Below are positions 2,395 through 63,409 of a stretch of 64,000 bases of DNA, piece after piece. The position numbers and the translations under genes are program-made. The stretch comes from a bacterium (GTDB lineage Bacteria > Patescibacteriota > Minisyncoccia > UBA6257 > WO2-44-18), in the NCBI GenBank assembly GCA_030646995.1, contig JAUSKF010000004.1, positions 84,404-148,403 of the forward strand. Reading direction: 5' to 3'. A model generated the notes under the pieces. That model was not told where the DNA came from, ran no database searches, and was given only the letters and a program-made list of their open reading frames with translations. Positions within the stretch are counted from its first letter, which is position 1; each line of letters begins with the position of its first letter.

Positions 2395-2552
2395 TACTTC
2401 CTATACTACCAAACCATTCACTCTTTTAAAACTTTTTGGCGCAGGGCAGCTGCCTCTAAGGAACATGCCGGAGACGATTTTGATTGGTTTGTTTGTTAAT
2501 ACAAACGAAAAATCGTCGAGGGAGAAGAAAAACAGCCCGCAGGAGACTGTGG

Positions 2553-15172: not shown

Positions 15173-15470
15173 TGCTTAAATAAAGTACCTACATTTTAAT
15201 TCACTGGAAAAAATTTGTCTAGGAAAGTTTCTAGCTTTTGGTACCCTCAGGAAATTGCTTCTCAGAGATGGTGTAGTCCCGCTCCAGCGGCGGGACTCAC
15301 CTCGTGTCTCGCTCCGCCACTTCCGATTACGGAAGAACCGAGCTGGCGAAGCTCCGACACGCTCCTCGAACCAATATGCCTTCGACCAAAAGCTCGCAAC
15401 AGCAACCACTACCCCGCGGGGTAGTAGGAAGAAAAAAACCGCCACATCTTTCGACGTAGCGGCTTCACGA

Positions 15471-15833
15471 TTAAGAACTCACCTCCCCGAGTAACACCCA
15501 CTGATGCTCCCACTCCATCACCGTTTTGCCGGAACGGCTGATATGCGCAGGATAGTAGCGGATCTGATAACGTTTCCGGTTGTGCTTGATGACGCTACGC
15601 GACTTGGCGTTGGGATGAAGAGCGTCAATCTCCAGCTGAAGCTTCTCTTCCTCCGTACGCTCGATTGCCCCACTCTTCTTCAAGTCTTCCTCGATCCAAC
15701 GAAGCTGGTTGGCGGCATTATGGATTAGAGACGAGTACTTGTTGGGATTGTTACTCGAATCGTTGGCAGACCATTCATTACAACGACGCAGTTCCTCATA
15801 CGCCCTCGCCAAATCGTCGAAGGTATAAGGCAT
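15471..15833 (-). CDS. hypothetical protein (120 aa)
   Basis: GGAGG RBS 6 nt before ATG; strong sigma70-like promoter upstream. Confidence 0.5.
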   Translation of the reverse strand: MPYTFDDLARAYEELRRCNEWSANDSSNNPNKYSSLIHNAANQLRWIEEDLKKSGAIERTEEEKLQLEIDALHPNAKSRSVIKHNRKRYQIRYYPAHISRSGKTVMEWEHQWVLLGEVSS

Positions 15834-22406: not shown

Positions 22407-22489
22407 TGGTTTAGTGTTTCGTATAAAGTATACGGTATTAAGTATTGGGGGAGAATTTATACTTAATACATCACACTGAATACTAAATA
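22407..22489. repeat. AT-rich palindromic intergenic repeat (GTATTAAGTAT family), copy a
   Basis: gtattaagtat ... atacttaatac 11 bp inverted repeat plus the actgaatactaaatacta tail shared with copies at 47395-47500 and 49850-49945. Confidence 0.4.
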
Positions 22490-23044
22490 CTATTCGGAGA
22501 TCTCCTCAATCTTAGCAGAAAGAGAAACTTCAATCTCGCTGTTTGTTTTATCTACGGACTTTTGCGCCTTTTCGCGCGATTTGAATTTCTGATCTTCGGT
22601 AATTAATTTTTCCTTGAAAGCGGACTCAATCTTTTTATTTACATCATCACGCCCGGCGCGGACTTTTATCTTGGCCTCCTCGGTCAGACGCTTGGCCAAT
22701 TTAGTCAATTCTTCACGGCGTTCATCCGTCAGGGCCGGCAAATTAATCCGGATAAGATTACCGTCGGAATTAGCGGTTAATCCCATCCCGGAAGTTTCAA
22801 TAGCCTTAACCACCGCGCTCAAGGATTCTTTATCCCAGACGTTGATATCAATTTCACGGGGAGGAAGAATGCTGATTGCGCCAAGTTGCTGAACAGTAAA
22901 ATCCTGATCCATATACCGGACTTTCAGGTTATCCACCAGTTTTGGGCTGGGCCGGTTGGTACGGACTCCGGAAAGTTCATTTTTCAGATAATCCACGATC
23001 GCTCTTAAATTTTTCTCGAAATCTTTTATTAGTTGTTCTGTCAT
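22490..23044 (-). CDS. frr: ribosome recycling factor
   Basis: Canonical RRF length and motifs (VRTNRPSPKLVDNLKV, LPPREIDI). Confidence 0.95.
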   Translation of the reverse strand: MTEQLIKDFEKNLRAIVDYLKNELSGVRTNRPSPKLVDNLKVRYMDQDFTVQQLGAISILPPREIDINVWDKESLSAVVKAIETSGMGLTANSDGNLIRINLPALTDERREELTKLAKRLTEEAKIKVRAGRDDVNKKIESAFKEKLITEDQKFKSREKAQKSVDKTNSEIEVSLSAKIEEISE

Positions 23045-27986: not shown

Positions 27987-28328
27987 TTATTTTTCTATAG
28001 TTAAAAGATTCAAACGTTTTTGTTTCAAAAAATTCTGCGGCAACATACGCTTCACGGCCAACATCAAAACTTTCTCCGGAGATTTTGCAAAAGCCTCCTG
28101 GTAAACCTGCTCTTTCAAGTGACCCATATAGCCAGTGTGGCGATAGTAAATCTTTTGAGTCATTTTCCGACCGGTGACTACAATCTTCGAAGCGTTCTTA
28201 ACAACCACCTTATCTTTTCCGGGGTTGCGTGGCTGATAATCAGGATGCATTTTGCCCTGCAAAATCTGGGCAATCTGTGATGCCAAGCGTCCTAATTTCT
28301 GATCTTTTGCGTCAATTACGTATTGCAT
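27987..28328 (-). CDS. rplM: 50S ribosomal protein L13
   Basis: YYRHTGYMGHLK motif; canonical length. Confidence 0.95.
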   Translation of the reverse strand: MQYVIDAKDQKLGRLASQIAQILQGKMHPDYQPRNPGKDKVVVKNASKIVVTGRKMTQKIYYRHTGYMGHLKEQVYQEAFAKSPEKVLMLAVKRMLPQNFLKQKRLNLLTIEK

Positions 28329-28354
28329 TGTAGGATATTCTTATTGTTTAAACG

Positions 28355-28368
28355 TTTAAATATTTAAA
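28355..28368. promoter_or_regulatory. palindromic TTTAAATATTTAAA intergenic motif (1 of 5) upstream of rplM
   Basis: Exact 14 nt self-complementary motif, ~27 nt upstream of the start codon, in a 55 nt spacer. Confidence 0.4.
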
Positions 28369-28383
28369 GATATGATATATGAG

Positions 28384-28731
28384 TTACTTCACAAACTCAA
28401 TCACCGCCATCGGGGCGGCATCTCTCATGCGGGCCTTGGCCAACTTAGTGATGCGCAAGTAACCGCCGGCGCGATTCTGATAACGAGGCGCGACGTCAAA
28501 ATAAAGCTTCTTGGCAGATTTCTTAGGCAAAGCGGCAAGCAAGCGTCGAAGTGATGCTAATTGCTGCTTTTTGGCGATGGTAACCATTTTTTCCACCATC
28601 GGGCGAATTGCTTTGGCGCGCGCAACCGTAGTCGAAATCTTTTCTTTCATAATCAAATTATTAGCCAATCCTTGCAGGAAAGACTTTCGACGACCCATCG
28701 TACGATTAAATTTTCGCGCGTGCTTTGCCAT
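28384..28731 (-). CDS. rplQ: 50S ribosomal protein L17
   Basis: MAKHARKFNRTMGRRKS... canonical L17. Confidence 0.95.
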   Translation of the reverse strand: MAKHARKFNRTMGRRKSFLQGLANNLIMKEKISTTVARAKAIRPMVEKMVTIAKKQQLASLRRLLAALPKKSAKKLYFDVAPRYQNRAGGYLRITKLAKARMRDAAPMAVIEFVK

Positions 28732-28757
28732 TGTAGTATATTTCTATTATTTAAATG

Positions 28758-28771
28758 TTTAAATATTTAAA
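28758..28771. promoter_or_regulatory. palindromic TTTAAATATTTAAA intergenic motif (2 of 5) upstream of rplQ
   Basis: Exact 14 nt motif in the 45 nt rpoA-rplQ spacer. Confidence 0.4.
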
Positions 28772-28776
28772 CATCT

Positions 28777-29559
28777 TTACTCTTCTTTCTTCTTTTTCTT
28801 AGAGGCCTTTTTCGCTTTCTTTTCCTCTCCTTCTTCTGCAGCAACCGCAGACGCCTCTACTTCTTTGACTTCCACACCGGAAATCTTAACAAAGTGATCC
28901 TGCAAAATATTACTGGACTTTCTCAAAGCGGAAGATGGGGTGATACTGCCGTCGGTTGCGATAATCAAGCGGAGACGGTTGTAGTCAGCGCGCTCCCCTA
29001 CCCGCATATTTTCTACCGAAAAATTTACCTGTACTACCGGAGAGAATAAAGCGTCGATAGCGATAACACCAATCGGCAACTTATCGCTCTTACGGGATTC
29101 AACCGGCAAATAACCCAAACCCTTCTCCACGGTGATTTCCATATCTAATTCAGCATCCTTGCTGGTCAAGGTAGCAATGTGAACGTCGGAGCTAATCAGG
29201 TCAACTTGAGAGTTGGTCTTGATGTCGGACGCAGTCACAACTTTTTCTCCCTTAATCTTTAAAATCAAAACCTGAGGCTCGTCGGTGTGAATTCTAAAGC
29301 GAACTTTTTTCAAATTTAAAGCTACTTCCACCATGTCCTCCTTCACTCCTTCAACGGTAGAAAATTCATGGCTGGCTCCTTTGATTTTTACTTGAGTAAT
29401 CGCGGCGCCCGGAAGAGAAGAAAGCAAAACACGACGCAAAGCATTGCCAAGGGTTAAACCATAGCCACTGTACAATCCCTCAATTTCAAAAACCCCCTCT
29501 TTATCGGTTTCCGAGACCTTTTTGATTCCAACCGTCTCACTTAAATATTGATATTCCAT
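28777..29559 (-). CDS. rpoA: DNA-directed RNA polymerase alpha subunit (N-terminal domain only; no alpha-CTD)
   Basis: Alpha-NTD motifs (GYGLTLGNALRRVLLSSL, DALFSPV); 260 aa ending in an acidic/lysine tail in place of the ~80 aa HhH C-terminal domain. Confidence 0.9.
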   Translation of the reverse strand: MEYQYLSETVGIKKVSETDKEGVFEIEGLYSGYGLTLGNALRRVLLSSLPGAAITQVKIKGASHEFSTVEGVKEDMVEVALNLKKVRFRIHTDEPQVLILKIKGEKVVTASDIKTNSQVDLISSDVHIATLTSKDAELDMEITVEKGLGYLPVESRKSDKLPIGVIAIDALFSPVVQVNFSVENMRVGERADYNRLRLIIATDGSITPSSALRKSSNILQDHFVKISGVEVKEVEASAVAAEEGEEKKAKKASKKKKKEE

Positions 29560-29586
29560 AAGTTTTTTATTCTTTATATTTTACCT

Positions 29587-30201
29587 CTATTTACTATAAA
29601 AGTCAACCACAAGGTTCACATCAAACGGGATGTCGAAATCCTTAGGAGCGGAAAGCATCTTTCCCTCTTGTTTGTCAGCATCGACAGCCAACCAAACCGG
29701 AGCTTCGTATTTCTTTAGTTTTTCTCCCAAATCTTTGAAAAGCGGGTGTTCTTTAGACTGCGGACGAATGGAAACAATGTCTCCGGCTCGAAGCTGAATT
29801 GAAGGAATCGTGGCTTTGCGTCCATTCAACATAATATGGCCATGACTAACTAACTGGCGGGCAACGGAACGGGAAGCAGCAAATCCAACGCGATAGACCA
29901 CGTTATCTAAACGGCTTTCCAACAAGCTGATAATCAACGGACCGGTGACGCCGGGGTTACTGGTAGCTCTTTTTACGATCAAACGCATCTGATTCTCACG
30001 AATACCATAGGTATAGCGGATTTTTTGTTTCTCTTTCAGTTGAGTTCCAAATTCAGAAAGCTGTTTGCTAAAAGATTTACCGTGAGCTCCCGGTTTATGC
30101 GGCCTGCGTGAAGTAACGCATTTTGGAGAATTACAACGCTCCGCTTTCAAAAAAAGCTTTGTGCCTAGCGAACGTTCTCTTTTTTCTCGTGTATCAAACA
30201 T
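29587..30201 (-). CDS. rpsD: 30S ribosomal protein S4
   Basis: S4 domain (VSHGHIMLNGRKATIPSIQLRAGDIV). Confidence 0.95.
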   Translation of the reverse strand: MFDTREKRERSLGTKLFLKAERCNSPKCVTSRRPHKPGAHGKSFSKQLSEFGTQLKEKQKIRYTYGIRENQMRLIVKRATSNPGVTGPLIISLLESRLDNVVYRVGFAASRSVARQLVSHGHIMLNGRKATIPSIQLRAGDIVSIRPQSKEHPLFKDLGEKLKKYEAPVWLAVDADKQEGKMLSAPKDFDIPFDVNLVVDFYSK

Positions 30202-30227
30202 GGATGTATATTTTTATAATTTAAAAA

Positions 30228-30241
30228 TTTAAATATTTAAA
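30228..30241. promoter_or_regulatory. palindromic TTTAAATATTTAAA intergenic motif (3 of 5) upstream of rpsD
   Basis: Exact 14 nt motif in the rpsK-rpsD spacer. Confidence 0.4.
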
Positions 30242-30243
30242 CA

Positions 30244-30696
30244 TTAAATGCGGCGGACTTTGGGTGGTCTTGGACCGTTATGCGGAATCGGGGTTACGTC
30301 TTTAATAGAAAGGATATTGAAGCCATGGTTCGCCAAAGTGCGGACCGCGGAATCCCGGCCTCCGCCTACTCCGCTGACTACCACGTGCACATTGACCGGA
30401 CCGGACTTTTTCAACTTCTCAGCAATCACGGCGATTATCTTCGAAGCGGCAAAAGGAGTGGCCTTTTTCGGACCATTGAAACCCAAAGATCCGGCAGTGC
30501 TCCAAGCGAGTATATTACCTTTATCATCCGATACCGAAACTAGGGTGTTGTTGTAGGAAGCTTTGACGAAAACTTTGCCGGTATCAAATTTTTTGGAAAC
30601 CGACTTCTCGCTCGCCTTTGCAACAGCGGCTTCAGTCTTCTGGCCCTCTTTGAGGACTTCTTCGGTGGTTTGTTTTGTTGGTACTTTTTTACCCAT
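30244..30696 (-). CDS. rpsK: 30S ribosomal protein S11
   Basis: GKVFVKASYNNTLVSVSDDKGNILAWSTAGSLGF canonical. Confidence 0.95.
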   Translation of the reverse strand: MGKKVPTKQTTEEVLKEGQKTEAAVAKASEKSVSKKFDTGKVFVKASYNNTLVSVSDDKGNILAWSTAGSLGFNGPKKATPFAASKIIAVIAEKLKKSGPVNVHVVVSGVGGGRDSAVRTLANHGFNILSIKDVTPIPHNGPRPPKVRRI

Positions 30697-30717
30697 GTTG
30701 GTTGTGTATTTTTAGTA

Positions 30718-30731
30718 TTTAAATATTTAAA
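30718..30731. promoter_or_regulatory. palindromic TTTAAATATTTAAA intergenic motif (4 of 5) upstream of rpsK
   Basis: Exact 14 nt motif followed by a partial second copy (cgtttaaatatt). Confidence 0.4.
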
Positions 30732-30741
30732 CGTTTAAATA

Positions 30742-31125
30742 TTATTTCAACTCGTTTTTACGTTTTCCACTGCCAGCGGTCTTACGAACATTGCCACGCA
30801 CAGTGCGGGAGTTAGTCTTCGTCCTTTGGCCACGGACCGGGAGCTTGCGGGAGTGACGCATACCCCGATATGACTGCAAATCTTTCAATAAATTAATGTT
30901 CTGCTTGATGATTTGACGCAACTCACCCTCAACTTTAAAATTTTTCTCTATATGCGCCTGAATCCGGTTTACTTCCTCAGGGGTAAGAGTCTTGGCACGC
31001 TTGCTCGGATCAATTTTTACCTTCTCTAAAGTCTGGATTGCCAGAGTCCGGCCGATGCCGAAAAGATAAGTCAGCGCTATATCAATACGCTTGTTGTCTG
31101 GAATATTTGATCCGGAGATTCTCAT
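30742..31125 (-). CDS. rpsM: 30S ribosomal protein S13
   Basis: MRISGSNIPDNKRIDIALTYLFGIGRT canonical. Confidence 0.95.
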   Translation of the reverse strand: MRISGSNIPDNKRIDIALTYLFGIGRTLAIQTLEKVKIDPSKRAKTLTPEEVNRIQAHIEKNFKVEGELRQIIKQNINLLKDLQSYRGMRHSRKLPVRGQRTKTNSRTVRGNVRKTAGSGKRKNELK

Positions 31126-31143
31126 TGAAGTATATTTTATTAT

Positions 31144-31157
31144 TTAAATATTTAAAG
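31144..31157. promoter_or_regulatory. palindromic TTTAAATATTTAAA intergenic motif (5 of 5) upstream of rpsM
   Basis: Exact 14 nt motif in the rpmJ-rpsM spacer. Confidence 0.4.
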
Positions 31158-31177
31158 ATTTAAACATGGCGCTTCAC

Positions 31178-36379: not shown

Positions 36380-36799
36380 CTACACGAGCATGTATTTGAC
36401 GGCGGTCTCCATCACCAGCGACGCCGCCTTCAGGCTAGTGAGCCGGAGCTCACCCACCCAGAAGATCGGGGTGCCGGAGTACGACAGTTGGATCTTCAGC
36501 TCCTGCTGAAGAACCAACTCCTCCCCGGTCGGCATCTGGATACGATACTCCAGAATGCCGGTCGGGATATCCCCGAACGCGCTCTCTTCGGGCGCGCACC
36601 GGAGGTTGGCCATGACCCGCACTCCGCTCTCAAAGAAGAGAACGAAGTCCGGGTCGCACTTCAGCGCCCGCTCGACACCCTCCACGATGGAGGGCGCCAG
36701 CTTCTGGATCTCCGCGAATTCCTTCGCGAAGGTCCGCCCCGCCGGGGAAAGCTCCGACAACGACCTGACTGCCCGTCTGCTCGTCGTGGTGTTGCTCAT
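36380..36799 (-). CDS. hypothetical protein (139 aa), GC-rich cassette gene
   Basis: ORF with downstream terminator; ~60% GC against a ~45% core. Confidence 0.5.
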   Translation of the reverse strand: MSNTTTSRRAVRSLSELSPAGRTFAKEFAEIQKLAPSIVEGVERALKCDPDFVLFFESGVRVMANLRCAPEESAFGDIPTGILEYRIQMPTGEELVLQQELKIQLSYSGTPIFWVGELRLTSLKAASLVMETAVKYMLV

Positions 36800-36875
36800 A
36801 ACTTTTCTCCTTGAGTAGAATTTCTTGATTAGGCGATCGATCCGCGATGGACCGATCTAGCCCCGGAACCGGCGA

Positions 36876-37259
36876 CTACAGCATACGCAGGCGACCCGCC
36901 ACCGTGATGGCAATAATCACCGGCTTGACCTCCGGCCCACGATTCATCCGGTAGGCCCACTCTCCGGAACTGGTGTTCCGGACCCTGACCGTACACGCGC
37001 CCGACGGCGTTCTAGTGCTATCGGGTTTCAGGATCCAAACCCCAATCTCCAGCTGGAGATTGGCGCCGTGGCCGGTCTGGAAGCTCGAAAAGACGAGCTT
37101 CGATTTCAATCGGCCACCAACCTTCAGAAGATCGTCGATCTGCTCGACGATTTTCTGTTTCAGCCGCCCCCAGCCCGTCATGAGCTGGTGCTGAACCTCG
37201 TCGGCGGCAATGCCAATCCGAGGCCGGTCGTAGAGCGTAAAGCATGTGTTGACGGCCAT
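36876..37259 (-). CDS. hypothetical protein (127 aa), GC-rich cassette gene
   Basis: AGGAGGAGG RBS; promoter TTGACA-17-TAGACT upstream, inside the repeat. Confidence 0.5.
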   Translation of the reverse strand: MAVNTCFTLYDRPRIGIAADEVQHQLMTGWGRLKQKIVEQIDDLLKVGGRLKSKLVFSSFQTGHGANLQLEIGVWILKPDSTRTPSGACTVRVRNTSSGEWAYRMNRGPEVKPVIIAITVAGRLRML

Positions 37260-37339
37260 ACACCTCCTCCTAAATTAGTTTTCAAGGTTAAGCTTAGATC
37301 ACCTCAATCCAAGCCAAGAAAGTCTAGCATACTTGAGCC

Positions 37340-37540
37340 TATTTGTCAAGGGCTCATGGCTTCCTACCCCAAGCTCCTCATAAGACCTTCGGCGGCCAAA
37401 CCGCGACTTATTTAAGCTATTTTTTCGGCCCTAAAATTGGGGTGCGCCAAAATAGCTAAACGCACGGGGCTACGCCTCGGAATCTTATTCGGAGCATTGG
37501 GGTAAAGCCTGATTCGCTTTGTTAAAACTGGAACCAAGAA
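37340..37540. repeat. GC-rich intergenic repeat, copy A (~200 bp)
   Basis: Aligns along its length with 46440-46690 and partially with 57790-57875. Shared blocks include gaccttcggcggcc, ggccctaaa, cgcacggggctacgcctcggaatc, ttcgcttt and aagggctc. Confidence 0.55.
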
Positions 37541-39305: not shown

Positions 39306-40272
39306 AGTAATTCCAGCTACACCTTGTTGAGAGCAGAACTTGCCTGCCGAAGGCATGGCTGGAGGCAAAAAGCTATCTAAAATGGGTAGATTTGGACTCT
39401 GCCCAACAAAAAAGGCCTTAACAGACCTTAGGGATACTATATCACAAAGGGTATCGGAAAACAATCCTCTTTGGGGAATAAAAAAGCCCCCGTCTGCGTG
39501 AGCAAGCGGGGGTAAATCTGGGTCGCGTGGTAGCGGGTTGGGGGCGTAAGCCTCGCCATTGTCCTGCCCATCGGCAGGCATCGCGCTACCGACGCAACCT
39601 TTTCGAGAAAACTGCGCGCAGTCCGCGGTGTGGCCCCACCGCGGTGTAGAGGCCACTCATTCGCCTCTATGTTCCGGCGAGCCCCTGAGGGTACTCTATT
39701 CTCTCCGCGCCATCCAATTAAGCGGAGTTCTATAAGGCCGGAATTGACACGCACCACTCTTGTGATGCGGCTGCCAGGGTGGCTGCGCGCGCCCACCTGC
39801 ACCAAAAAGGATCCTTGTCCCTCGCGTAGATCATCAGACCTTACGCAAGGGACTTGTCCCATACATTAGAAATGTACGGTCTCTAACACTACAGTCATTC
39901 ACTAAAAGCACTTCGTTTTTCTAGCTTTATGGAACACACTGCGAAGCCCTAATCCCCCTTTATAGCGGGATGGGCAAGCCCGCCTGAGGCGGGTAAATAA
40001 AAGACCCTTTTTGATGCGGGTGGACTACTTAACGTTCTAGGAGAGATTATAGCGTATAACCTAATTCTTGTCAAGCCCCCACACCAAACGAGAAGTTTGG
40101 CTGAATTCTTTTGCTTCTCGTTGTGGTGTGGGGGTCAAGGGCTCCGGCATGTTCCTCGAAACTACTCCCTGCGCTTTGGAAAAAAACGCCTCCGAGACGT
40201 TCCTTGAAGATGTTTTCCCAAGATAGTAACCGACCGGTGTTATCCCGCGAGATAACACCCCATCGTTGACTA
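39306..40272. other. ~1 kb GC-rich, hairpin-dense non-coding block
   Basis: No credible ORF; ORF-track entries here are Arg-rich translations of GC-rich DNA. Multiple long perfect stems, e.g. 40078-40136, 39968-39998 and 39630-39680. Confidence 0.3.
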
Positions 40273-40311
40273 TAAAAACAAAAATCCCCTACCTTCTGCA
40301 GAAGGTAGGGG
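40273..40311 (-). terminator. strong rho-independent terminator (11 bp perfect stem)
   Basis: Read on the minus strand: CCCCTACCTTCtgcaGAAGGTAGGGG followed by atttttgttttt. Confidence 0.55.
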
Positions 40312-41014: not shown

Positions 41015-41347
41015 AGCTTTCCTCCTTGTAAGGGACTGGCGAGATATTAGCATGTCAAACTGAATTCGTCAAACTATAAAAATCCCTGCCGGCAGGCAGG
41101 CCCTTCAATAAGAACAAAGCGAACGAGGTTACTTTTTGTTCTCGTAGCTCCTCAAAGCAGAGGCGAAGGCGTGTTGGTTCAAGGAACATCTCGGAGGCGG
41201 TTGGGCTTGGCTCGTTCGTTGTCCATATTTACGAACGAACAACCGCCGAGAGAGAAGAAAACCCCGCCGTTGGAGTGGGGTTATTCTGTGTCCGAGAATC
41301 AATACGCCAGAGCCCTTTGCGAGAGAATAAAAGTAGCCGAGTGAGCC

Positions 41348-45336: not shown

Positions 45337-45374
45337 TAAAAAACCTCTGCAATTACGCAGAGGCTTTGTTTGTT
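45337..45374. terminator. bidirectional rho-independent terminator
   Basis: aaaaaaa-CCTCTGC-aattac-GCAGAGG-ctttgtttgttt. Confidence 0.5.
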
Positions 45375-45375
45375 T

Positions 45376-46431
45376 CTAAAATGGCTTTATTTGCTTCAGC
45401 AAATCGGAAGCCGGATTAAACCTGAACTTCTTCACCGGTTCGAAGAAGTCACTACATTGCTCAAGCGCAAAGACAATCTCTTTCGCTTCTTCGCTAGTCA
45501 AACTTTCCTTCATTCCCTTCTCCAAAACTTCGATAGTGTATTTGGGGGAAAGAAGCTCGGGATCTCGGCCGGGCACTCTCTTGGCCCGCTCTTCGAGCAT
45601 CCGCCTCGGCAACTCTTTCGCAAGGAACCAAAGCGCATCGCGAAGTTTTGCATAAGTCTCAGAGCTTGTGTCAGCGTTGCATTCTTTCACGGCTCGGAGA
45701 ACCGACCGGAAAGAAGGCGGCCTCTTAACTGATGCCGCGCGGCAGGCCAACACTCCGCCGATGCCTCCGCCATCCGCCCTTTCTGGCGGAGGCGGATCCG
45801 CTTCAAGCACTTCGCAAGATGGCAGGAGAAGGATTGCCTCGGAATCAATCTCCTTCTCTTCGGGCTCGGCCGATGCCAGCCTGACATCGGAAACCAACAG
45901 CGAACAAGGCAGATTCAAATTTTTCAAAGATTGCGGGATGTGGTCGTAGGAAATAACATGTACCAATTTTCCGGCGACAATCAGCGCTTGCACCAGCTTG
46001 AAGAACGGCTCACCGCCATCCCCTGTGCAAAGCACTACTCCCTGAACGCGAGCATCGTTAGCCATCAGCAAACCGATTTCGCAAAGGGCCAAATCCGCAG
46101 AATCCTTCCCTTGTGGAACCAGAATCACGGAAGTGAAGTCGCGATCAATGAGGCACTGCATCATCCGAGAATTATCTTTGCGCATCGCCACCGGCTTCTT
46201 CCGAATGTCAGCGCTCTCTCCATGCACAACAGACTTCGGGGCAGACAGCGCAGCATCTGCGCGAATCAAAGGTCCAAATTGACCGGCAATTCGATCAGCT
46301 TGATCAATCGCTAGATTCAAAACCTTTACATCCGTCAGGCTGCAACCATCATCGTGCCTTGCCTGAATAGTCAAATTTTCAACGTCCATCAAGATGACAC
46401 TGCCCTTGAGCGTACTCGTCTCCGCATGCAT
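45376..46431 (-). CDS. NYN-domain (LabA-like, PIN-like nuclease) protein with C-terminal extension, GC-rich
   Basis: VILMDVENL...DSADLALCEIGLLMANDARVQGVVLCTGDGGEPFF matches the NYN D...EN...D...GDGDF pattern. Start trimmed to the ATG preceded by GGAGAGG; the longer ORF runs into the repeat. Confidence 0.55.
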   Translation of the reverse strand: MHAETSTLKGSVILMDVENLTIQARHDDGCSLTDVKVLNLAIDQADRIAGQFGPLIRADAALSAPKSVVHGESADIRKKPVAMRKDNSRMMQCLIDRDFTSVILVPQGKDSADLALCEIGLLMANDARVQGVVLCTGDGGEPFFKLVQALIVAGKLVHVISYDHIPQSLKNLNLPCSLLVSDVRLASAEPEEKEIDSEAILLLPSCEVLEADPPPPERADGGGIGGVLACRAASVKRPPSFRSVLRAVKECNADTSSETYAKLRDALWFLAKELPRRMLEERAKRVPGRDPELLSPKYTIEVLEKGMKESLTSEEAKEIVFALEQCSDFFEPVKKFRFNPASDLLKQIKPF

Positions 46432-46439
46432 GGCTTTTC

Positions 46440-46690
46440 CTCTCCAAGACAGCGGTGATATCTTACTAATTTTTTGCCAAAAAGTAAAGGGCTCGCTCGG
46501 TCTTTGCATAACTTCTCACTCGACCTTCGGCGGCCATGCCGCGACTCACTTAACGAGATTTTTCCGGCCCTAAAGGGACACTTCGTTCCCGAAAAAATCT
46601 CTATTCGCACGGGGCTACGCCTCGGAATCTCGTTCGAAATTATGCAAAGGCCTCATTCGCTTTATAAAAAATCTCCGCAAAAATGCGGAG
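46440..46690. repeat. GC-rich intergenic repeat, copy B (~250 bp) carrying the promoter of the NYN gene
   Basis: Homologous to copy A. On the minus strand TTTACT-17-TAAGAT promoter at the left end, aligned with TTGACA-17-TAGACT in copy A. Confidence 0.55.
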
Positions 46691-46691
46691 A

Positions 46692-47339
46692 CTAATCATC
46701 ACGTCGAGGGCAGGACTCACCAAACAGATAACCGAAGGCCATAGCAAAGAGTCCGCCGGCTACCACATCCACAAGGTTGTGCTGTTTCACGGTTAGGGTG
46801 CTAATGGTAATCAATGCGCCCCAAAGCATGAACAGTACACCCTTCCGATAACGCCCGGCGGACATCAAGAGAAATGGCCCAAGTAAGCTGAAAAAGGCAT
46901 GCCCGCTGGGAAATTGATTGGCGGCCACATCGGTAGCCCGCAACCAGAGCACGGCGCCGTCAAAGTAATTCAGACAATGCACTACCGGCGTAGGATAATT
47001 ATGCGTCGTCGGCAGAAAGAAATAGAAAAGACTCAAGAGCAGACCACCGAGCATGTATGCCCAAAAAAGATTCCGAAGAACTAGTCGATTACGAACCGTC
47101 AGAAAAATTAGGGTGACTTGCAGATAGAGAGTCAGGTAAATTACTACCGTCCACGACACGAAAGGGATGGCCTGGTCGAGATGATAGAATGGCGTGACGT
47201 CTGGTTCCAAAATTAGAATTTTCGGAATAATTGCGTAAGTCGCGCCAGCCATTATCCAAAAGATAATAAGGGCCTTAAATTTCTCTCGCCAGCAAAAAAC
47301 AAAAGTATCTCGCACCTCCTTCCACCACTTCAATATCAT
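46692..47339 (-). CDS. PAP2-family membrane phosphatase
   Basis: PSGHA and VKQHNLVDVVAG motifs (PAP2 motifs 2 and 3), 5-6 TM. Confidence 0.6.
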   Translation of the reverse strand: MILKWWKEVRDTFVFCWREKFKALIIFWIMAGATYAIIPKILILEPDVTPFYHLDQAIPFVSWTVVIYLTLYLQVTLIFLTVRNRLVLRNLFWAYMLGGLLLSLFYFFLPTTHNYPTPVVHCLNYFDGAVLWLRATDVAANQFPSGHAFFSLLGPFLLMSAGRYRKGVLFMLWGALITISTLTVKQHNLVDVVAGGLFAMAFGYLFGESCPRRDD

Positions 47340-47394: not shown

Positions 47395-47500
47395 GGTTAG
47401 TAAACCCAAATCGGTATTTAGTATAAGGTATCCGGTATTAAGTATGCCCTCGCTCAAATACGGAATACTTCATACTTGATACTAAATACTAAAAATCCGG
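47395..47500. repeat. AT-rich palindromic intergenic repeat (GTATTAAGTAT family), copy b
   Basis: ccggtattaagtatg ... atacttcatacttgatactaaatactaaaaa. Confidence 0.4.
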
Positions 47501-49845: not shown

Positions 49846-49849
49846 ATGT

Positions 49850-49945
49850 GATTAGTATTAAGTATTTTGTATTAAGTATCAAGTATAATTCGCATACTGA
49901 ATACCGGATACTTTATACCTAATACTACTAAAATAGCCCCAATGG
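49850..49945. repeat. AT-rich palindromic intergenic repeat (GTATTAAGTAT family), copy c
   Basis: gtattaagtattttgtattaagtatcaagtata ... atactgaataccggatactttatacctaatacta. Confidence 0.4.
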
Positions 49946-57180: not shown

Positions 57181-57789
57181 TAGGTGGTTATTATTTTTTA
57201 GGGTGACGTTTATATTAATGGCGACCCTGTCTAACCATTTTGGTTATTAAATTTTATTAAAATTGCGTCTTTCTTCCGCATGACTCTTCTACGGGGCTTG
57301 CCCCGCACCTTATTGCGTCATAGGCAGGCAAACTTCACGTCATAGAAAAGGTGCGGGGTCAAATTCAGAAAAACGCCAAAACCCAAACCACGCTTTTTAC
57401 CGATTTGAGCGTAGCTTATGGATTTCTTTAATTAGTTAATAGTGTATACCCGTTGACAAAAATTGTCAAGGGTGCGTTGGGGTGTGCCCGGTGCTACAAC
57501 AAATATGACCTAAGCACAAACCTCTATTTTCCACACAAACTTGCCGAAAGCTACTCTAATCTAGCCTGTTGGTTGTAGCACCGGGTGTGGATAACTCCCC
57601 TTGACCGCACTTGGCACTTTCGGGCGATCACTTCTCGGAAACGGCATAATTTGCTTCCAGCGAGCAAATTTACCTCTCCCTCGGCGATTTGTCCCTAATG
57701 AGCCAATCCAAATCGCCTGCGGCATGTTCCTCCAAGTAATCCGCCCTACGGCCAAGAGCAGTCTGCGTTGGTGCTGGTTGGGGAAATAA

Positions 57790-57875
57790 AAAATCCTATT
57801 CGCGCAGGGCTACGCCTCGGAATCGAGTCCGGAGTTTGGAACAGGGGCTCGCTAAGTTAGAAATCCGCCCACGCC
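57790..57875. repeat. GC-rich intergenic repeat, partial copy C
   Basis: aaaaaatcctattcgcgcagggctacgcctcggaatcgag...gggctcgct aligns with the 3' half of copies A and B; immediately 3' of the restriction-modification gene stop. Confidence 0.45.
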
Positions 57876-57907: not shown

Positions 57908-60283
57908 TTAAAATCCTGAAGGATAAGGCAAAGACCTTATATAGTCTTCCATAAATTGCCAATCAGGATTATCGCTCTTACCAATGGGAAGTTTAATTTT
58001 TTCGAAAGGCAATCTCATAAGCCTTACTTGTCTGCCATAGGCATACTTATACTTCAATTTACTTAGTATAGTTACCAAAAATAAAGAGCTGAATTTACTA
58101 AGCTCAAAGTCAATCGGAATAAGCGTGTGCACATTGTCGTCGCTGAAATATTTATAGTCATGATAAAAAACATTAAAAAACATATCGACGGTTATTTTAT
58201 TTTGAAATATCTTCTTCTTGCCTTGGAACTCCTCCAAAGAAATGTATTCGGAAACACCGTTGTTATTTTCTCCAGCTGTTATTAGTGGGATCTCGCCATC
58301 TATACGATCGGGCTTTGTCAATCTCTCCCCTTTCTCAAAGCGAAATAGATCACCCAAGCCAAACACTCTCCAACTGCGAGTATCTATTAATTGCTCCTTC
58401 TTAGTAGAATCTTTATTTTTTAACAAGAACTCAGCCATTTCGCTTTTCCCGTTTTTAAATAAAAACGCAGCTACATTCACTGTATTTTGAATAAATTCTA
58501 ATCCACTAATTCTTGAGAAATCAGTCTCGAGATACGCCTCAGCGCACCACTCATCATCTTTGGTGATCTTTTTAAGAACACAAAAACCAGGAATTTCTTT
58601 TTTCCCGTAAAAAGCCGCCAACCATGCTTCTCTTATATCTCGCCATTTGTCGGTAGCGACCCTGCCATCCCTTTTATCTTTTCTAAAACCATCATTTTTC
58701 CAATATCCGAACCAGCTCTCGTGATGCTCGTCGCTATCATGTGGGGTATGAGCCGTAAAAACCATAATACAAGTAACGGTTCCGATGGGGTAAAATAGGT
58801 CATCCGGCATACTCATCACCGCTTCTAATCTATGCTCGCTGAGAAGTTTTTCACGAAGTGGATGCTTGGTATCGATCGCTAGAGACATTGGCACAATTAC
58901 TATCCCCGTCGCGTTCTTACTCAACCCATCAAGCATGCGAATGACGAAATCCCACTCATGCAAATTGTCACCTTTTTGTGAATATGGTGGGTTCATAAAA
59001 CCCGCGTTCGCTTTATTTTTAATTTTATTGAAAAGAACGTCATCGAAACATGAACCTTGATAAAGATTAGTCTTCCCATCACCTCGCAAGATCATGTTCG
59101 AAACAGCTAGAGCAAACATTTGGGGTTCTTGCTCGATGCCAATAAGGGAGTTGGATAGTATTCTTCTTTTCTCTTCCGCCGAAACTTTTCCAGTCATTTT
59201 TTTCATCGCCGATATCAGAAAACCGCCAGTTCCGGCGCATATATCAAGAACGACTGAATTCTTGTCTAGTTTTGCCAACTCTGAGAATAAGTCGGTGATA
59301 TGTTTTGGGGTTAGAACAATACCAAGACCCTTACCATCACCTCCGGTATAACGAATAAATTCACCATAAAAATTGCCTATGATGTCAAAATCATAGTGAT
59401 CTTTGGTGAAGGGCTGAACGTGCATTTGTAAATCTCTGATTATGTGTAGTAAAGGGGATTCGTTTTTCTTGGCGTCAATCTTTTGTAACTCAGGATGGTG
59501 TGCTATAAAACTAAACGCGTTTACAACTGCTTTCTTCTTAGCTTCATGCGTGTCTCCAAGCTCCGCTTTATCTATAATCTTTTTTAAAGAATTAAATGTC
59601 TCGTTGGCCAATTCTTCTCCTTCGTATTTCTTGTATGCAACCTCAAAACCCTTATCCATGAGAGCTAATAAAACACCGCTAACTAGCAATGGCTTTTGGG
59701 CTTCAGTAATCTTCGCATAATCGCGCATGTAATCATGCAACTCCCGGGAAAAACGCATTAGATCAGAATGCCGGGACTTTGCTAACGCAGGATCAAATTT
59801 CGCACGCTCAATATACCTATTCCAAGGCAGTATTTTCTCGATTTTTCTATTATTTTCATCTAATAAATCTGTATAGGTAGAAGAGTTTTTAGGATATAAA
59901 TATGTACTTACTTTGTAATCACTTTCATCTTCGCCGCTAATACCAATGGCAATAACATTAAATTCCCGGGCCAGGTGACTACCATACAAAAGAGCGCCAT
60001 CAACTGCATAATCCTTGTACTGATCCCTGCTTTTTGATTCGTGATATTTTAAATCCGCTTTGCATTCGATGATTAGTAAAAAATCATTGTCGTCTTTTTT
60101 CCTAACAATAAACTCCGGCTTTCCCGATCCTAAACCAGACTTACTGGCATTTTTTAGTAATTTTTGGATTGTGGGATTGTCGCTTTTTTGTTCTTCAACA
60201 ACAAATTCTGCATTATCAAAAATACCCGCCTTTGTCAGAAGTTTACGAGATAGGTTTTCGGTTTTTTTCTCGTTCTTAGTCAT
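57908..60283 (-). CDS. single-polypeptide Type IIG/IIL restriction-modification enzyme (MmeI-like: N-terminal PD-(D/E)xK nuclease, gamma-class N6-adenine methyltransferase, C-terminal HsdS-like target-recognition domain)
   Basis: DFLLIIECK nuclease motif; methyltransferase motif I VLDICAGTGGFL before motif IV NPPY; C-terminal region with HsdS-type TRD pattern. AT-rich (~33% GC). Start trimmed to the ATG after a GGGGG RBS. Confidence 0.75.
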   Translation of the reverse strand: MTKNEKKTENLSRKLLTKAGIFDNAEFVVEEQKSDNPTIQKLLKNASKSGLGSGKPEFIVRKKDDNDFLLIIECKADLKYHESKSRDQYKDYAVDGALLYGSHLAREFNVIAIGISGEDESDYKVSTYLYPKNSSTYTDLLDENNRKIEKILPWNRYIERAKFDPALAKSRHSDLMRFSRELHDYMRDYAKITEAQKPLLVSGVLLALMDKGFEVAYKKYEGEELANETFNSLKKIIDKAELGDTHEAKKKAVVNAFSFIAHHPELQKIDAKKNESPLLHIIRDLQMHVQPFTKDHYDFDIIGNFYGEFIRYTGGDGKGLGIVLTPKHITDLFSELAKLDKNSVVLDICAGTGGFLISAMKKMTGKVSAEEKRRILSNSLIGIEQEPQMFALAVSNMILRGDGKTNLYQGSCFDDVLFNKIKNKANAGFMNPPYSQKGDNLHEWDFVIRMLDGLSKNATGIVIVPMSLAIDTKHPLREKLLSEHRLEAVMSMPDDLFYPIGTVTCIMVFTAHTPHDSDEHHESWFGYWKNDGFRKDKRDGRVATDKWRDIREAWLAAFYGKKEIPGFCVLKKITKDDEWCAEAYLETDFSRISGLEFIQNTVNVAAFLFKNGKSEMAEFLLKNKDSTKKEQLIDTRSWRVFGLGDLFRFEKGERLTKPDRIDGEIPLITAGENNNGVSEYISLEEFQGKKKIFQNKITVDMFFNVFYHDYKYFSDDNVHTLIPIDFELSKFSSLFLVTILSKLKYKYAYGRQVRLMRLPFEKIKLPIGKSDNPDWQFMEDYIRSLPYPSGF

Positions 60284-60478
60284 GGAAAACCCCCAAAGCA
60301 GTAAAAGCAAAATTATCTCCTATTGTTTGATTATATCATCTTCGCTTATATCGAAAACGGAAAAGAGTAAATAATACATATAGCAAAGCTATGCCGAGAA
60401 AGCTCCTCAGGGCGTGGATCCAATCCTCGCCCTAGCCGCCTTCTTCCATTTTACTCTCTAGGTTAGTAAATTCCTTTC

Positions 60479-61633
60479 CTACTTTATCGCCTTAATGAAA
60501 CTGATTAGTGCCTCGGTTGCTTCCGCGAGATCTATTGAAACTGGAACATCAATACCATGTGCAATATCGTGCCTTAGTCTAGTAATGGGCGTGATTGGAT
60601 CCTTTTTATTATCGGCTTTGCAGATTCGGCCTACTTTCTTTGATTTAAAATAAGCATTGAACATATACTCGTCAAAATCAGTGTAAGTATCACCTGTGTA
60701 CCTACCACTTTTTTCTTCACGGCGCTTTAAATATTCATATAATTCTAAATAGTAACTCTCGCTCGCTACTCCAAAAATGAGGTAATTAATCTCACCATCT
60801 GACTTATAAGGAAGCACCCCTACGCCATCCATTCTTTTCACGGCGGTCGCATCCTTCTTGGTATCATCGCGATATATTTGGTAAATTGCCTGCCCCTTAC
60901 CCAGCTCTATAAAATATGGATCATGGGTCGTAATAAGAACTTTCGCGCCCGGCCTTTGAGAAAGCTTAAAGAGGGCACCATATAAGCTCTTTTTCCATTT
61001 TGGATGTAGGTATGCTTCTGGCTCTTCGAAAACTATTAAAATTTTCTCTTCTTCTCTAATCTCTCTTTCGGCGTAGTACCGAATAAGCGCTGCAACTATG
61101 AGACGCTGCGCGCCCATTCCAATTTTTTCAAAATCCACCTCACCAACTTTTGTTTTATATAAATCTTTTACGAAGGCTTTTATCAGCTTAATAATCAAAT
61201 CTTCCTTAAAACTATCCTCGGATATCTTCAGATCAAACTCCTTCTTCTCCAAACCAAAATCATTCAAAATCCTATTTACTCCGCCAACAAATTCTTTTTT
61301 CGCTTTAGACGTTTCAAATTTATTCGCTAAATCCTTAAGCATACTTTTATCGAAAATCGGGCCGAGGATAAGCTTTAGGAGCTTAAAAAAATCAGTCGTT
61401 GTTGCGGAGGTCTTTGTTTCTTCGTTCTGTGGCTGAGTATTCTCTGCGGGAATAAAAATAGGCTCATATTCTCCCATTGCTTCATGATCCATAATTGCCT
61501 TAACTAAGCTTGTTTTTCCGCTATTATTCTCGCCAGCCAAAATTGTGTAATTTCCCAACTCTAATATTATTTCCTCGGTGATACTCGTCCCATCTTGCTT
61601 AGGTATAGTAAGTTTCATTTTATTGAGCTTCAT
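60479..61633 (-). CDS. AAA15/ABC-type ATPase with ~130 aa C-terminal domain carrying an Rx4-6H (HEPN-like) motif
   Basis: Walker A GENNSGKTS, Q-loop-like GMGAQR, Walker B ILIVFEEPEAYLHP, H-loop VLITTHDP; C-terminal TRLRHDIAHG. Start ambiguous (61648/61633/61618). Confidence 0.65.
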   Translation of the reverse strand: MKLNKMKLTIPKQDGTSITEEIILELGNYTILAGENNSGKTSLVKAIMDHEAMGEYEPIFIPAENTQPQNEETKTSATTTDFFKLLKLILGPIFDKSMLKDLANKFETSKAKKEFVGGVNRILNDFGLEKKEFDLKISEDSFKEDLIIKLIKAFVKDLYKTKVGEVDFEKIGMGAQRLIVAALIRYYAEREIREEEKILIVFEEPEAYLHPKWKKSLYGALFKLSQRPGAKVLITTHDPYFIELGKGQAIYQIYRDDTKKDATAVKRMDGVGVLPYKSDGEINYLIFGVASESYYLELYEYLKRREEKSGRYTGDTYTDFDEYMFNAYFKSKKVGRICKADNKKDPITPITRLRHDIAHGIDVPVSIDLAEATEALISFIKAIK

Positions 61634-62883
61634 GTGCCCCGCTGCCATCTTCTAATTCCAAAGTTTTTATCTGTGGTAAAGAAACTAAACCGCTTAAATC
61701 CCCATACATGCCTACTGTGTTCGTAATTACTTTTTGAATTTGCTTTTCTCTCTCAGACCAAATCTTTTCATATGCCAGTCGTTCTTTTCTTAAACCTTCA
61801 CCCATATTAGTGAAAGCCTCAACGATTGCCTCTACCCTCTGCCTAAACTCCACGCCAGTTAAATAACTGTAAAGTACTTCCATCTTTTCATTCTTGCCAA
61901 CCGACATTGCCCTCTCCCTCGTGACTGCTTCTAAATTCATTCGTATGGCCGTAGCTAAAGCTATAGAAAGCTTCGTGTCGCAAATCCAAACTCCGTCTCG
62001 AAAAATAAATCCCTTCACCCCCTCCGGCAAAACCGCAGAAACAATCACTGCTACATCAGCCTTAATCGCTCTTTGATCATCTTTTAACTTCTGAATCCAT
62101 CCCTCGCTCCAAGCCTTGGTTTTTTTAGATTCCCAAACAATTTTTCCGCATAATCGACCGCCACGATCCAAAACTTTCTGAATAACATCGGCGCCGGTAA
62201 CTCCTTTGGGGACTGGCAAAATTTCATCAATCGGAAATTCAGATCTCAGTATTTCTTCAAGTTCCAATTCCAGAACCTCGCCCTGAGTTTGCTGCGATCC
62301 TTGTTCTAGCTTGCGCATCAAATCAGCGTTCGCTTTCGTAACGTCCGAGATTTTTTTATTCAGTTCGGCAATTTTATACCAACTTTCCTCTACGGCCTTT
62401 TTATTAGCTTCTTCTGATATCTTTTTTCGTTCCTCATCTAATTGCCTCTGCTTCTCTAGTTCAAAGTTCTTTTTGTCCTCTTCAAGTTTATTCTTCTCTT
62501 TGCGTAGCCGTAACTCATTTCCATTCGCTTCCTCTAACTTTTTATCCTTTTCTTTGAGCTGTTCATCTAAAAATTTTAATTCAGACAACTTTTGCTTTTC
62601 TGCCTCAGCTTGAGCCTGCTTCCGCAAAGCAGGTTTCTCAGCGGCAATCTTTTCGTTTACTTTCCTGTTAACCTCCGCTTGCGAGTTTTGTTGAGCCTCT
62701 AATAATTTGACCTGCCCGGCTTCTAATTCTTTTCTCTGTGTAGTAATTTCGGCTTCTTTTAGCCTGCTTTCTTCGCCAAATTCTTTTTTTAATTTTTCTT
62801 TTATTTGATGAGTCAAAACCTCATCCATCGAAAATAACGCACGGCATTTCGGACACTCAATTTTTTGCCCTGGGGTTTCCATT
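61620..62883 (-). CDS. DUF2130-like protein: N-terminal zinc ribbon, long coiled coil, C-terminal PD-(D/E)xK-like domain
   Basis: ECPKCRALF zinc ribbon; ~250 aa K/E-rich coiled coil; GADVIQKV...IVWESKKTK (D...ExK). Start trimmed to the ATG at 62883; the longer extension runs through GC-rich DNA. Confidence 0.55.
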
Positions 62884-63007
62884 TTGATTTTAATTGTTAC
62901 TGATTCTACCAGAAAATCTGGTATACAGGAACTCGCTGCGCCCCAGGAAGGAATCAAGTCTTCGGGAAATAAAAAGCCCCGCTTATTAGGCGGGGCCACT
63001 TTCTTAC

Positions 63008-63409
63008 TTAACCACCTAGGACGGGATAGTGCTGCTGATGGACGTGGTACTTGAATCCATGGAACTCGCTGATGTAAATCTTGTTCACCATATCGCCGCA
63101 TCGTTTTTCGGGTTGGCCAACTTCGATGCACAGATCACTGAACGGAATCTCGGGGAATGCTTCCCGCGCAAGCGCGATTAACTGACTCATCTTCGGAAGC
63201 ATTGCCAGCGATCGCGGACCCGCAACTGCGACGAAGGTGATTTCCACAACTCGCGCCGAATCCTTGAACTCGGTCATCACTGCCGTCGTCTTTGTGTCTT
63301 CCGCTTTCCCATTGGCCGACATGAGATGCGACAAATCCTTCGTCGCATTCACTTCCCGAGCTTTTTTCCACGCCGCCTTCAACTCCGGACTTGCGCCTTT
63401 CATGGCCAA
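63008..63409 (-). CDS. hypothetical protein (133 aa), GC-rich
   Basis: AAGGAGG RBS; minus-strand promoter TTGCTT-17-TATTAT at 63432-63460. Confidence 0.45.
   Translation of the reverse strand: MAMKGASPELKAAWKKAREVNATKDLSHLMSANGKAEDTKTTAVMTEFKDSARVVEITFVAVAGPRSLAMLPKMSQLIALAREAFPEIPFSDLCIEVGQPEKRCGDMVNKIYISEFHGFKYHVHQQHYPVLGG

Follow-up and report, generated by a model that had tools for sequence, protein, structure and literature searches.

Introduction

The enterobacterial ERIC sequences (also called IRU) are non-coding imperfect palindromes of 127 bp that are located between genes and are patchily distributed at orthologous sites. They are kept across species with structure-preserving changes, and some copies carry internal insertions at fixed points; we know of no transposase for ERIC. 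REP sequences have a GUAG directly 5' of an imperfect palindrome, and form a strand-specific hairpin that is recognised as single-stranded DNA. CPR bacteria are ultra-small and have tiny genomes in which non-coding DNA is scarce, and descriptions of repeats or regulatory RNAs from them are few. Here, we analyze a structured intergenic repeat, termed family 1, in a 64-kb stretch of CPR bacterial DNA (hereafter, the window) and in related genomes, and compare it with these and other known systems.

Results

Family-1 copies in the window

The family-1 repeat is about 190 nt long, and is represented in the window by two full copies (A and B) and one degenerate full-length copy (C), all on the minus strand, which is the gene-sense strand. 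The copies and related features are as follows.

37340-37530, minus strand: copy A, subtype 1, a full rod of ~190 nt (covariance model R1, 191 bits, E 3e-51)
37461-37484, minus strand: 5' strand of the core in copy A, GAUUCCGAGGCGUAGCCCCGYGCG
37384-37408, minus strand: 3' strand of the core in copy A, AGUCGCGG-nnn-GGCCGCCGAAGGUC, which pairs with the 5' core strand
46479-46673, minus strand: copy B, subtype 2, a full rod (R1, 193 bits, E 8.5e-52)
46606-46629, minus strand: invariant 5' strand of the core in copy B
57701-57869, minus strand: copy C, degenerate and full-length with a shortened tip (R1, 23.7 bits, E 7e-5)
40126-40180, minus strand: remnant resembling the element ends (CCAAAGCG...GGAACAUGCCGGAGCC; also read as CCAAAGCG...GGAACATGCCGGAGCC), missed by the covariance model

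The initial annotation of the window, made from its sequence alone, described A and B as related and C as the 3' half of the same element. The relationship of A and B is confirmed by their alignment over about 190 nt and by their similar covariance-model scores. The exact core word noticed in C is also genuine: the 18-mer GGGCTACGCCTCGGAATC is common to A, B and C, with three exact matches in the window (37467, 46612 and 57807, all on the plus strand) against 0.05 expected. By the covariance model, C is a degenerate full-length copy rather than a 3' half, and its 3' side is fused to a different repeat (family 2). The sequence GACCTTCGGCGGCC is present within the window in copies A and B only. 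A scan of the window with model R1 matched A, B and C and nothing else. The window copies are spaced 9-11 kb apart, with dnaG, rpoD and rpoBC in between.

The motif AAGGGCTC, which had been thought to recur as a related signature in other GC-rich non-coding stretches, is not enriched in the window (five occurrences against 2.6 expected, with 13 of 100 shuffles reaching five), and was rejected as a family signature since its count is at chance level. The stretches concerned, 40128-40140 and 41300-41345, do not belong to family 1 by the covariance model; they contain the remnant and a different repeat family.

Copies elsewhere and host lineage

Six further copies were identified beyond the window, every one from CPR MAGs or groundwater metagenomes, which brings the known total to nine. 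An exact 18-mer scan of 185,579 species (one genome each) returned 29 loci, three of which are true copies (L018, L022 and L027); the other 26 are in-frame chance matches in GC-rich genomes. A 24-mer scan of metagenome contigs yielded three more copies (L031, L032 and L033) and one chance match. Searches of viral contigs, phage records and plasmid records found zero copies. When the window and six loci were scanned with Rfam 15 at the gathering score, the element was unmatched and the window yielded only tRNA-Pro(GGG); at E<=10 around A and B, nothing relevant was found, the sole matches being the intrinsic terminator of the PAP2 gene. The family-1 repeat is previously undescribed: it has no Rfam match, and full-text literature searches found nothing similar.

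The copies L018, L022 and L027 are located in two CPR MAGs labelled Saccharibacteria. These labels clash with the evidence from RpoC and S1: the named organisms nearest to these homologues are Parcubacteria and Harrisonbacteria, and on this basis the window and the copy-bearing contigs belong among Parcubacteria/Harrisonbacteria-like CPR bacteria. Because of this contradiction, the clade is treated here as Parcubacteria-like. The MAG that carries both L018 and L027 is closely related to the organism of the window: gene order is the same, and amino-acid identities are 97% for MreB, 93% for RpoD and 85% for DnaG. Copy A and the L027 copy are 84% identical and have unrelated flanking genes, and the rpoD or mreB DNA of the two genomes shows a similar identity (84-86%).

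Subtypes 1-3 coexist inside genomes and recur across genomes, and no near-identical pairs occur among the known copies. The initial annotation allowed for a recent local duplication in the event that neither further copies nor covariation were found; both were found, and such a duplication is therefore refuted. Family 1 is a structured, non-coding repeat of intergenic DNA that is restricted to one lineage, a Parcubacteria-like CPR clade.

Fold, strand and conservation

Copy A has a predicted folding energy of -76 kcal/mol (z -5.9/-5.7 versus shuffles), copy B has z values of -4.1/-3.3, and the fold of copy C is no better than shuffles (z -0.1). We used an alignment of the eight full copies as input for RNAalifold. 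The consensus on the gene-sense strand (the minus strand of the window) is a single long rod with 48 pairs and -42.9 kcal/mol, compared to 39 pairs and -34.4 kcal/mol on the opposite strand. Standard pairs account for 94% of the 382 pair cells of this alignment on the gene-sense strand. Both sides have changed in 14 pairs, versus 6.0 ± 1.7 in shuffles (0/500) and 1-4 in controls with slid partners; the covariation in the family-1 fold is significant.

The gene-sense strand has 26 G.U cells and no A.C cells, whereas 10 A.C/C.A cells occur in the plus-strand structure, which was predicted independently. These counts, together with the larger number of pairs and the better energy, therefore indicate that the gene-sense strand is the folded strand, as RNA or single-stranded DNA. 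The plus strand, which was at first favored for a hairpin CGGGGC-UAC-GCCUCG with a G.U pair, was dropped as the functional strand on these same figures.

The element begins at its 5' end (minus strand) with the conserved lead-in AAAGCGAA, followed by an outer stem of ~20 bp whose sequence is wholly different between subtypes and whose pairing is kept. The two strands of the core form a GC-rich helix of ~20 bp with fixed irregularities, namely a UU bulge, a GA/GAA internal loop, a UA bulge and a 3-nt bulge. The 5' core strand is identical in all eight full copies save for the position Y, which is paired to G as C-G or U-G, and the 3' core strand consists of near-invariant columns (142-192 of alignment A3). 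Beyond the core lies an A/U-rich stem with compensatory changes, and then a variable tip of three kinds: subtype 1 in A, L027 and L033, subtype 2 in B and L022, and subtype 3 in L018, L031 and L032. In both the outer stem and the A/U stem, B differs from A by compensatory changes. The element ends with a conserved CCGAGYGAG tail at its 3' end, and L022 carries an extra 26-nt hairpin inserted in an internal loop. K-turns require five nucleotides in the bulged strand; a kink-turn in the GA/GAA loop was rejected, its bulged strand having only three. Within subtypes, identity is 92.6% in the core and 73.7% in the rest of the element, which means purifying selection on individual copies or on several master copies.

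Position between terminator and promoter

In gene orientation, seven of the eight full copies end 3-7 nt before a sigma-70-type -35 box. The eighth, L033, has a convergent gene in place of a downstream promoter, and the degenerate copy C lies ~230 nt upstream of the rpoB promoter. The predicted signals and genes around the copies are as follows.

37321-37349, minus strand: promoter after copy A, TTGACA-17-TAGACT (10/12 matches), driving the 127-aa ORF
36380-37259, minus strand: two ORFan genes downstream of copy A (127 aa and 139 aa), with a terminator after them
46670-46693, minus strand: PAP2 intrinsic terminator directly upstream of copy B, with a 10-bp stem and a U tract
46460-46488, minus strand: promoter-like hexamers after copy B, TTTACT-17-TAAGAT, upstream of the NYN gene, identified by reading
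45376-46431, minus strand: NYN-domain gene downstream of copy B (351 aa, GC 0.51)
L027: promoter TTGACA-17-TATAAT
L031: promoter TTGTCA-17-TATTAT
L032: promoter TTGCCT-17-TATACT
L022: promoter TTGATT-16-TATAGT
L018: promoter TTGCTA-17-TAAAAT

The hexamers at A and B were placed correctly in the initial annotation, which took them to be carried by the element. The copy A promoter starts 3 nt past the last conserved block (GAG), outside the conserved part of the element, and the promoter-like hexamers of copy B occupy the same position with respect to the element as those of the other copies; their assignment to host genes is addressed below. The genes downstream of the copies are unrelated, namely the ORFan pair (A), the NYN protein (B), MreB (L018), an RRM protein (L022), L25 (L031) and S1 (L032), and the upstream genes are likewise unrelated to one another. 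The predicted GC-richness of the downstream genes holds for the ORFan genes after A (GC 0.59 and 0.62, window 0.46) and is marginal for the NYN gene. Copy B, its promoter, the NYN gene and a terminator (about 45343-45364) make up a unit of ~1.36 kb.

Each window copy comes after the end of a minus-strand gene, as had been noted, with the correction that a terminator separates B from the stop codon of PAP2. Both B and L027 have a canonical intrinsic terminator before the element, with a U tract ending about 15-20 nt short of it; the nearest upstream gene of L032 is a divergent tRNA, and in copy A the element follows the stop codon of the upstream gene without a separate terminator in between. 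No terminator was found after the element on the gene-sense strand, and no U tract follows the rod in A or L027. No conserved promoter was found upstream of the element on either strand; promoter-consensus matches inside the element occur in subtype 2 only, and the start would fall within the outer stem. Located in a gap between terminator and promoter and without a conserved promoter of its own, the element region should therefore be little transcribed. The earlier suggestion of a transcribed 3'-UTR or insulator is weakened by the strong terminators before B and L027 and by the divergent tRNA before L032. The gene-sense strand is also the G-rich strand and all neighboring genes are co-oriented, so that orientation fails to separate a mobile element from one with a host function.

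Several essential genes in these genomes are apparently leaderless: AlaRS (36195), S1 (L032 8541) and L25 (L031) have an ATG 6-8 nt past a good -10 box and no Shine-Dalgarno sequence, and the ORFan and NYN genes have leaders that bear one. A riboswitch or ribosomal-protein leader was rejected, as the element is located upstream of the -35 box and not in a 5' UTR, the S1, L25 and AlaRS mRNAs appear leaderless, and the downstream genes are unrelated and have orthologues in relatives without the element. A short conserved NYN gene (177-189 aa) is found in relatives after S1-S15 and before PNPase (L045 2469-3038, L046 2240-2785 and L047 5680-6213); the 351-aa NYN protein beside copy B is longer and distinct from it.

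Filled and empty orthologous sites

The S1 locus is filled in L032 (...CCGAGCGAG|ATATTTGCCT-17-TATACT-8-ATG) and empty in L045 (...CCTATAT|TTGCCT-17-TATATT-8-ATG), a contig from the same MAG as L022, in which the family is present. L046 is the same as L045 and has no element, and a promoter TTGCCT-17-TAnAnT-8-ATG is common to L032, L045 and L046. Since the S1 promoter is present at the empty sites, it is the gene's own. At the mreB locus, L018 has the order aaRS, element, mreB, and in the window two ORFan genes (15176-15833) stand between aaRS and mreB, with no element even though MreB is 97% identical; the mreB promoter spacer and -10 box are the same in both.

The slot after the gene following rpoD has a terminator tail GGGGATTTTTGTT and a promoter CTTGACAAGAA...GCTATAAT that are common to L027 and the window. 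L027 carries an intact subtype-1 copy between them, and the window slot (40075-40285) contains unrelated hairpins, the remnant and a perfect 48-nt palindrome; no duplicated bases were found at the junctions of this filled-empty pair. The PAP2 and cupredoxin genes are adjacent in the relative L036, and in the window they are separated by a terminator, copy B, the promoter, the NYN gene and a second terminator. The rpoBC neighborhoods of four relatives (RpoC 82-86% identical) hold no copy.

The -35 box and the 1-4 nt upstream of it are shared with empty sites (S1 and the L027/window pair), and the element as a donor of -35 boxes was rejected on this ground. Judged from these alignments, the predicted promoters belong to host genes and not to the element. 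The proposal of a promoter-bearing MITE is thus divided: insertion-type presence and absence is upheld, and the promoter part fails because the S1, mreB and rpoD-distal promoters occur without the element. The proposed link to foreign genes is seen in the ORFans after A and the inserted NYN unit after B, but most copies elsewhere precede native genes; foreign genes and repeats may land in the same permissive slots, which would explain their association. The element turns over quickly between sister genomes, in one orientation and with its fold and core kept.

Comparison of the 5' end AAAGCGAAUGAGGCC with the reverse complement of the 3' end GGGCUCGCUCGGUC gave ~6/12 matches, and no conserved terminal inverted repeats were found. 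Nor was a convincing target-site duplication found at the family-1 copies: the flanking hexamers have 3-6/6 matches with free alignment, with 6/6 in L018 only, and T-rich flanks are expected to give as much.

The perfect 48-nt palindrome (40078-40125, minus strand; CCCCCACACCACAACGAGAAG...CTTCTCGTTTGGTGTGGGGG) is flanked by a CTTGAC direct repeat, and its insertion point coincides with the -35 box of a perfect promoter, TTGACA-17-TATAAT (40074-40046). In sequence it looks like a small MITE whose 6-bp target duplication would have regenerated the -35 box. Insertion into the rpoD-distal slot does happen: the window slot carries this palindrome with its CTTGAC flanks.

Other repeats and neighboring loci

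Family 2 is a second GC-rich structured repeat, with motifs that include GGAACAUGCCG..[stem]..CGAGGGAGA. Its copies are as follows.

2458-2545, plus strand: family-2 copy in the window
41178-41317, minus strand: family-2 copy in the window
57632-57731, minus strand: family-2 copy in the window
L036 20996-21129: family-2 copy elsewhere
L031 1131-1195: family-2 copy elsewhere

The family-2 stems covary (GGCGAUUU/AAAUCGCC versus GACGAUUUU/AAAAUCGUC), and the orthologous site of L036 shows 81% conservation of the copy that follows rpoD. A related 25-mer, TTCAAGGAACRTCTCGGAGGCG, is also found at 40184-40208 and directly upstream of the L018 copy. Five AT-rich 46-nt repeats (CATTGTAG.ATATT...TTTAAA.GTTTAAATATTTAAA) occur at 28326-31167 in the short spacers that separate ribosomal-protein and rpoA genes. 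An AT-rich palindromic repeat (GTATTTAGTATAAGGTAT..ATACTTGATACTAAATAC) is intergenic at 22412-22492, 47414-47491 and 49848-49927, with one site by tRNA-Pro and one between the S6 and SSB genes.

A long hairpin at 57480-57590 (minus strand; CACACCCGGUGCUACAACC ... GUUGUAGCACCGGGCACACC) is found a short way upstream of the promoter of rpoB, TTGACA(57469-57464)-17-TACACT, which is followed by a 5' UTR of ~260 nt with its own GC-rich hairpin. Directly upstream of copy C and rpoB is an AT-rich island (57908-63131, minus strand; GC 0.39-0.42). Its products are a fused N6-methylase/specificity protein, an AAA_21 ATPase and a DUF2130 protein, and it probably represents a defence island that was acquired; relatives carry FtsW-YceG at this position. 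Logan short-read contigs of the same organism (SRR13727527) stop in or beside repeats, for example within C (L043 5875-6102; L035; L044).

Discussion

Origin and possible role of family 1

It is roughly an even call that family 1 is, now or recently, a non-autonomous mobile element of the REP/ERIC/MITE kind that depends on a single-stranded structure, comparable to REP/RAYT, ERIC or IS200-derived palindromic elements. We infer its mobility, a single-stranded intermediate and a trans-encoded enzyme. The single-stranded fold would be lagging-strand-template single-stranded DNA or an RNA copy, and the enzyme, encoded in trans, would recognise the fold and above all the conserved core. Copies would survive only in the short non-transcribed gap that extends from a terminator (or stop codon) to the next -35 box, in one orientation, this gap being the sole place where a streamlined genome would tolerate them. 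We favor the mobile reading because of the strand-specific, covarying fold and the restricted distribution, because the copies are non-orthologous, because they are present or absent at orthologous sites, because their location speaks against a transcribed function, and because insertion happens in the rpoD-distal slot. Against it, a scan of about 55 window ORFs found no transposase, integrase or HUH/Y1 domain, and none adjoins any copy. The lack of near-identical copies gives no sign of recent transposition, and only nine copies are known. IS110 bridge RNA, omega RNA and retron msr/msd were rejected, as no recombinase, TnpB/IscB or RT gene is adjacent and as family 1, with its varying helices and conserved loops, shows the opposite of a guide-RNA pattern.

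Purifying selection acts on the core, and a host function would explain this equally well, as it would the tight spacing to the -35 box and the points just raised against mobility. A somewhat unlikely but serious alternative is accordingly a host-functional boundary element between transcription units. The rod, as read-through RNA or extruded DNA, would then serve for backup termination or insulation, for the binding of an RNase or another protein, or for modulating the promoter, with the core as the binding site of a host protein. The greater constraint on the core within subtypes fits such a role, as do the free, RNA-like use of G.U pairs, the missing separate terminator before copy A, and a divergence between A and the L027 copy that equals that of rpoD/mreB DNA. 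The short distance to the -35 box in seven of eight copies is tighter than tolerance alone predicts; it is found upstream of the highly expressed S1, L25, MreB and RRM-protein genes, with rpoB also downstream of a copy, and other, unrelated long hairpins abut -35 boxes in the window (40078-40125 and 57480-57590). However, the same genes in relatives, even in a family-bearing MAG, have the same promoter without the element, and the window has let the element decay at the rpoD-distal orthologous slot. The terminators upstream of B and L027 and the divergent tRNA of L032 leave little RNA to be expected, the rods of A and L027 end without a U tract, and no promoter lies downstream of L033.

Distinctly unlikely, in our view, is an element that is targeted to promoters or works with them, either as a mobile insertion near sigma-70 -35 boxes or as a domesticated cis element. 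A structure-guided mobile element would in the first case integrate a few nucleotides upstream of these boxes. In the second, the GC-rich core with its GA/GAA loop would bind a CPR protein, perhaps RNA polymerase, a sigma factor or a nucleoid protein, and this binding would insulate strong and often leaderless promoters, or adjust their output, in genomes where transcription factors are very few.

It is improbable that the copies are small RNA genes with transcription of their own, such as those of a 6S-like or protein-sequestering rod RNA. A rod of ~190 nt with covariation and a conserved irregular helix would suit them, and without an Rfam match the RNA could be an undescribed one. But the element has no conserved upstream promoter, its internal consensus matches are specific to subtype 2 and would start transcripts within the outer stem, no gene-sense terminator follows it, the upstream U tract ends 15-20 nt before it, and several diverged copies are found per 64 kb, with turnover between sister genomes. 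6S RNA itself was rejected, as the element lacks its own promoter and terminator, has a continuous helix with small bulges in place of the large central bubble of the 6S type, and is present three times within 64 kb, compared to one or two genes per genome for 6S.

The attC-like or other site-specific recombination site at gene-cassette boundaries that the initial annotation had put forward is very improbable and already largely refuted: although the strand-specific fold is attC-like, the B-promoter-NYN-terminator unit is absent between PAP2 and cupredoxin in L036 and copy A precedes two GC-rich ORFan genes, neither putative cassette has a second copy or half-site at its distal end, native housekeeping genes follow five of the seven promoter-adjacent copies and have promoters that are also present where the element is missing, the window ORFs scanned encode no integrase domain and the window has no array of tandem cassettes, the R''/R' core motif is missing, the conserved centre and variable stem base are the wrong way round, and 190 nt exceeds any known attC.

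Turnover of an element whose fold and core are kept hints at a new mobilisation system that acts on single-stranded structures, or at a new boundary element, which in the latter case would be of a new kind suited to compact, largely leaderless transcription units. In practice, family 1 breaks short-read assemblies and may wrongly be taken for an ORF (46474-46695) or a cassette site, and the covariance model R1 permits a clade-wide census of it.

Comparison with known systems

Like attC sites, the family-1 element would act through a folded single strand and is placed after an upstream stop codon. It differs in having no RYYYAAC/GTTRRRY boxes, with ends AAAGCGAA... and ...CCGAGYGAG (TTTATAAAA at the end of copy B), in its length (190-220 nt, compared to about 57-141 bp for attC), and in its invariant centre and variable stem base, the centre of attC being variable. 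The presence/absence polymorphism at the orthologous S1, mreB, rpoD-distal and rpoBC sites is shared with DDE-type MITEs, but the invariant centre and covarying ends of family 1 are the reverse of their pattern. Correia/CREE of Neisseria and RUP and BOX of pneumococcus are likewise short non-autonomous hairpin repeats near genes that can affect expression; they show terminal inverted repeats and target-site duplications, neither of which was found for family 1, and promoter hexamers are part of some of them, whereas the promoter next to family 1 is the host's.

REP/BIME sequences share with family 1 a strand-specific hairpin, a location after genes and a conservation that is kept across copies. 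In the family-1 core, a GUAG precedes the palindrome CCCCGYGCG...CGCGG..GGC, a likeness that involves only a 4-mer and may be due to chance. REPs are 20-40 nt long, are present in hundreds of copies and often form inverted pairs, compared to the 190-nt family-1 element, and no match to a RAYT/Y1_Tnp gene was found among the window ORFs scanned.

ERIC, as a non-coding imperfect palindrome with patchy orthologous sites and structure-preserving changes, shares these features with family 1, and the 26-nt insertion in L022 is comparable to the insertions seen in some ERIC copies. There is no sequence similarity between the two. ERICs are mostly located in transcribed regions, whereas family 1 lies after terminators and before -35 boxes, measures about 190 nt, keeps its central helix invariant and has a CPR host. 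Among the systems considered here, family 1 most resembles the known intergenic repeats, and it differs from them in its host, its size, its pattern of conservation and its strict position between terminator and promoter.
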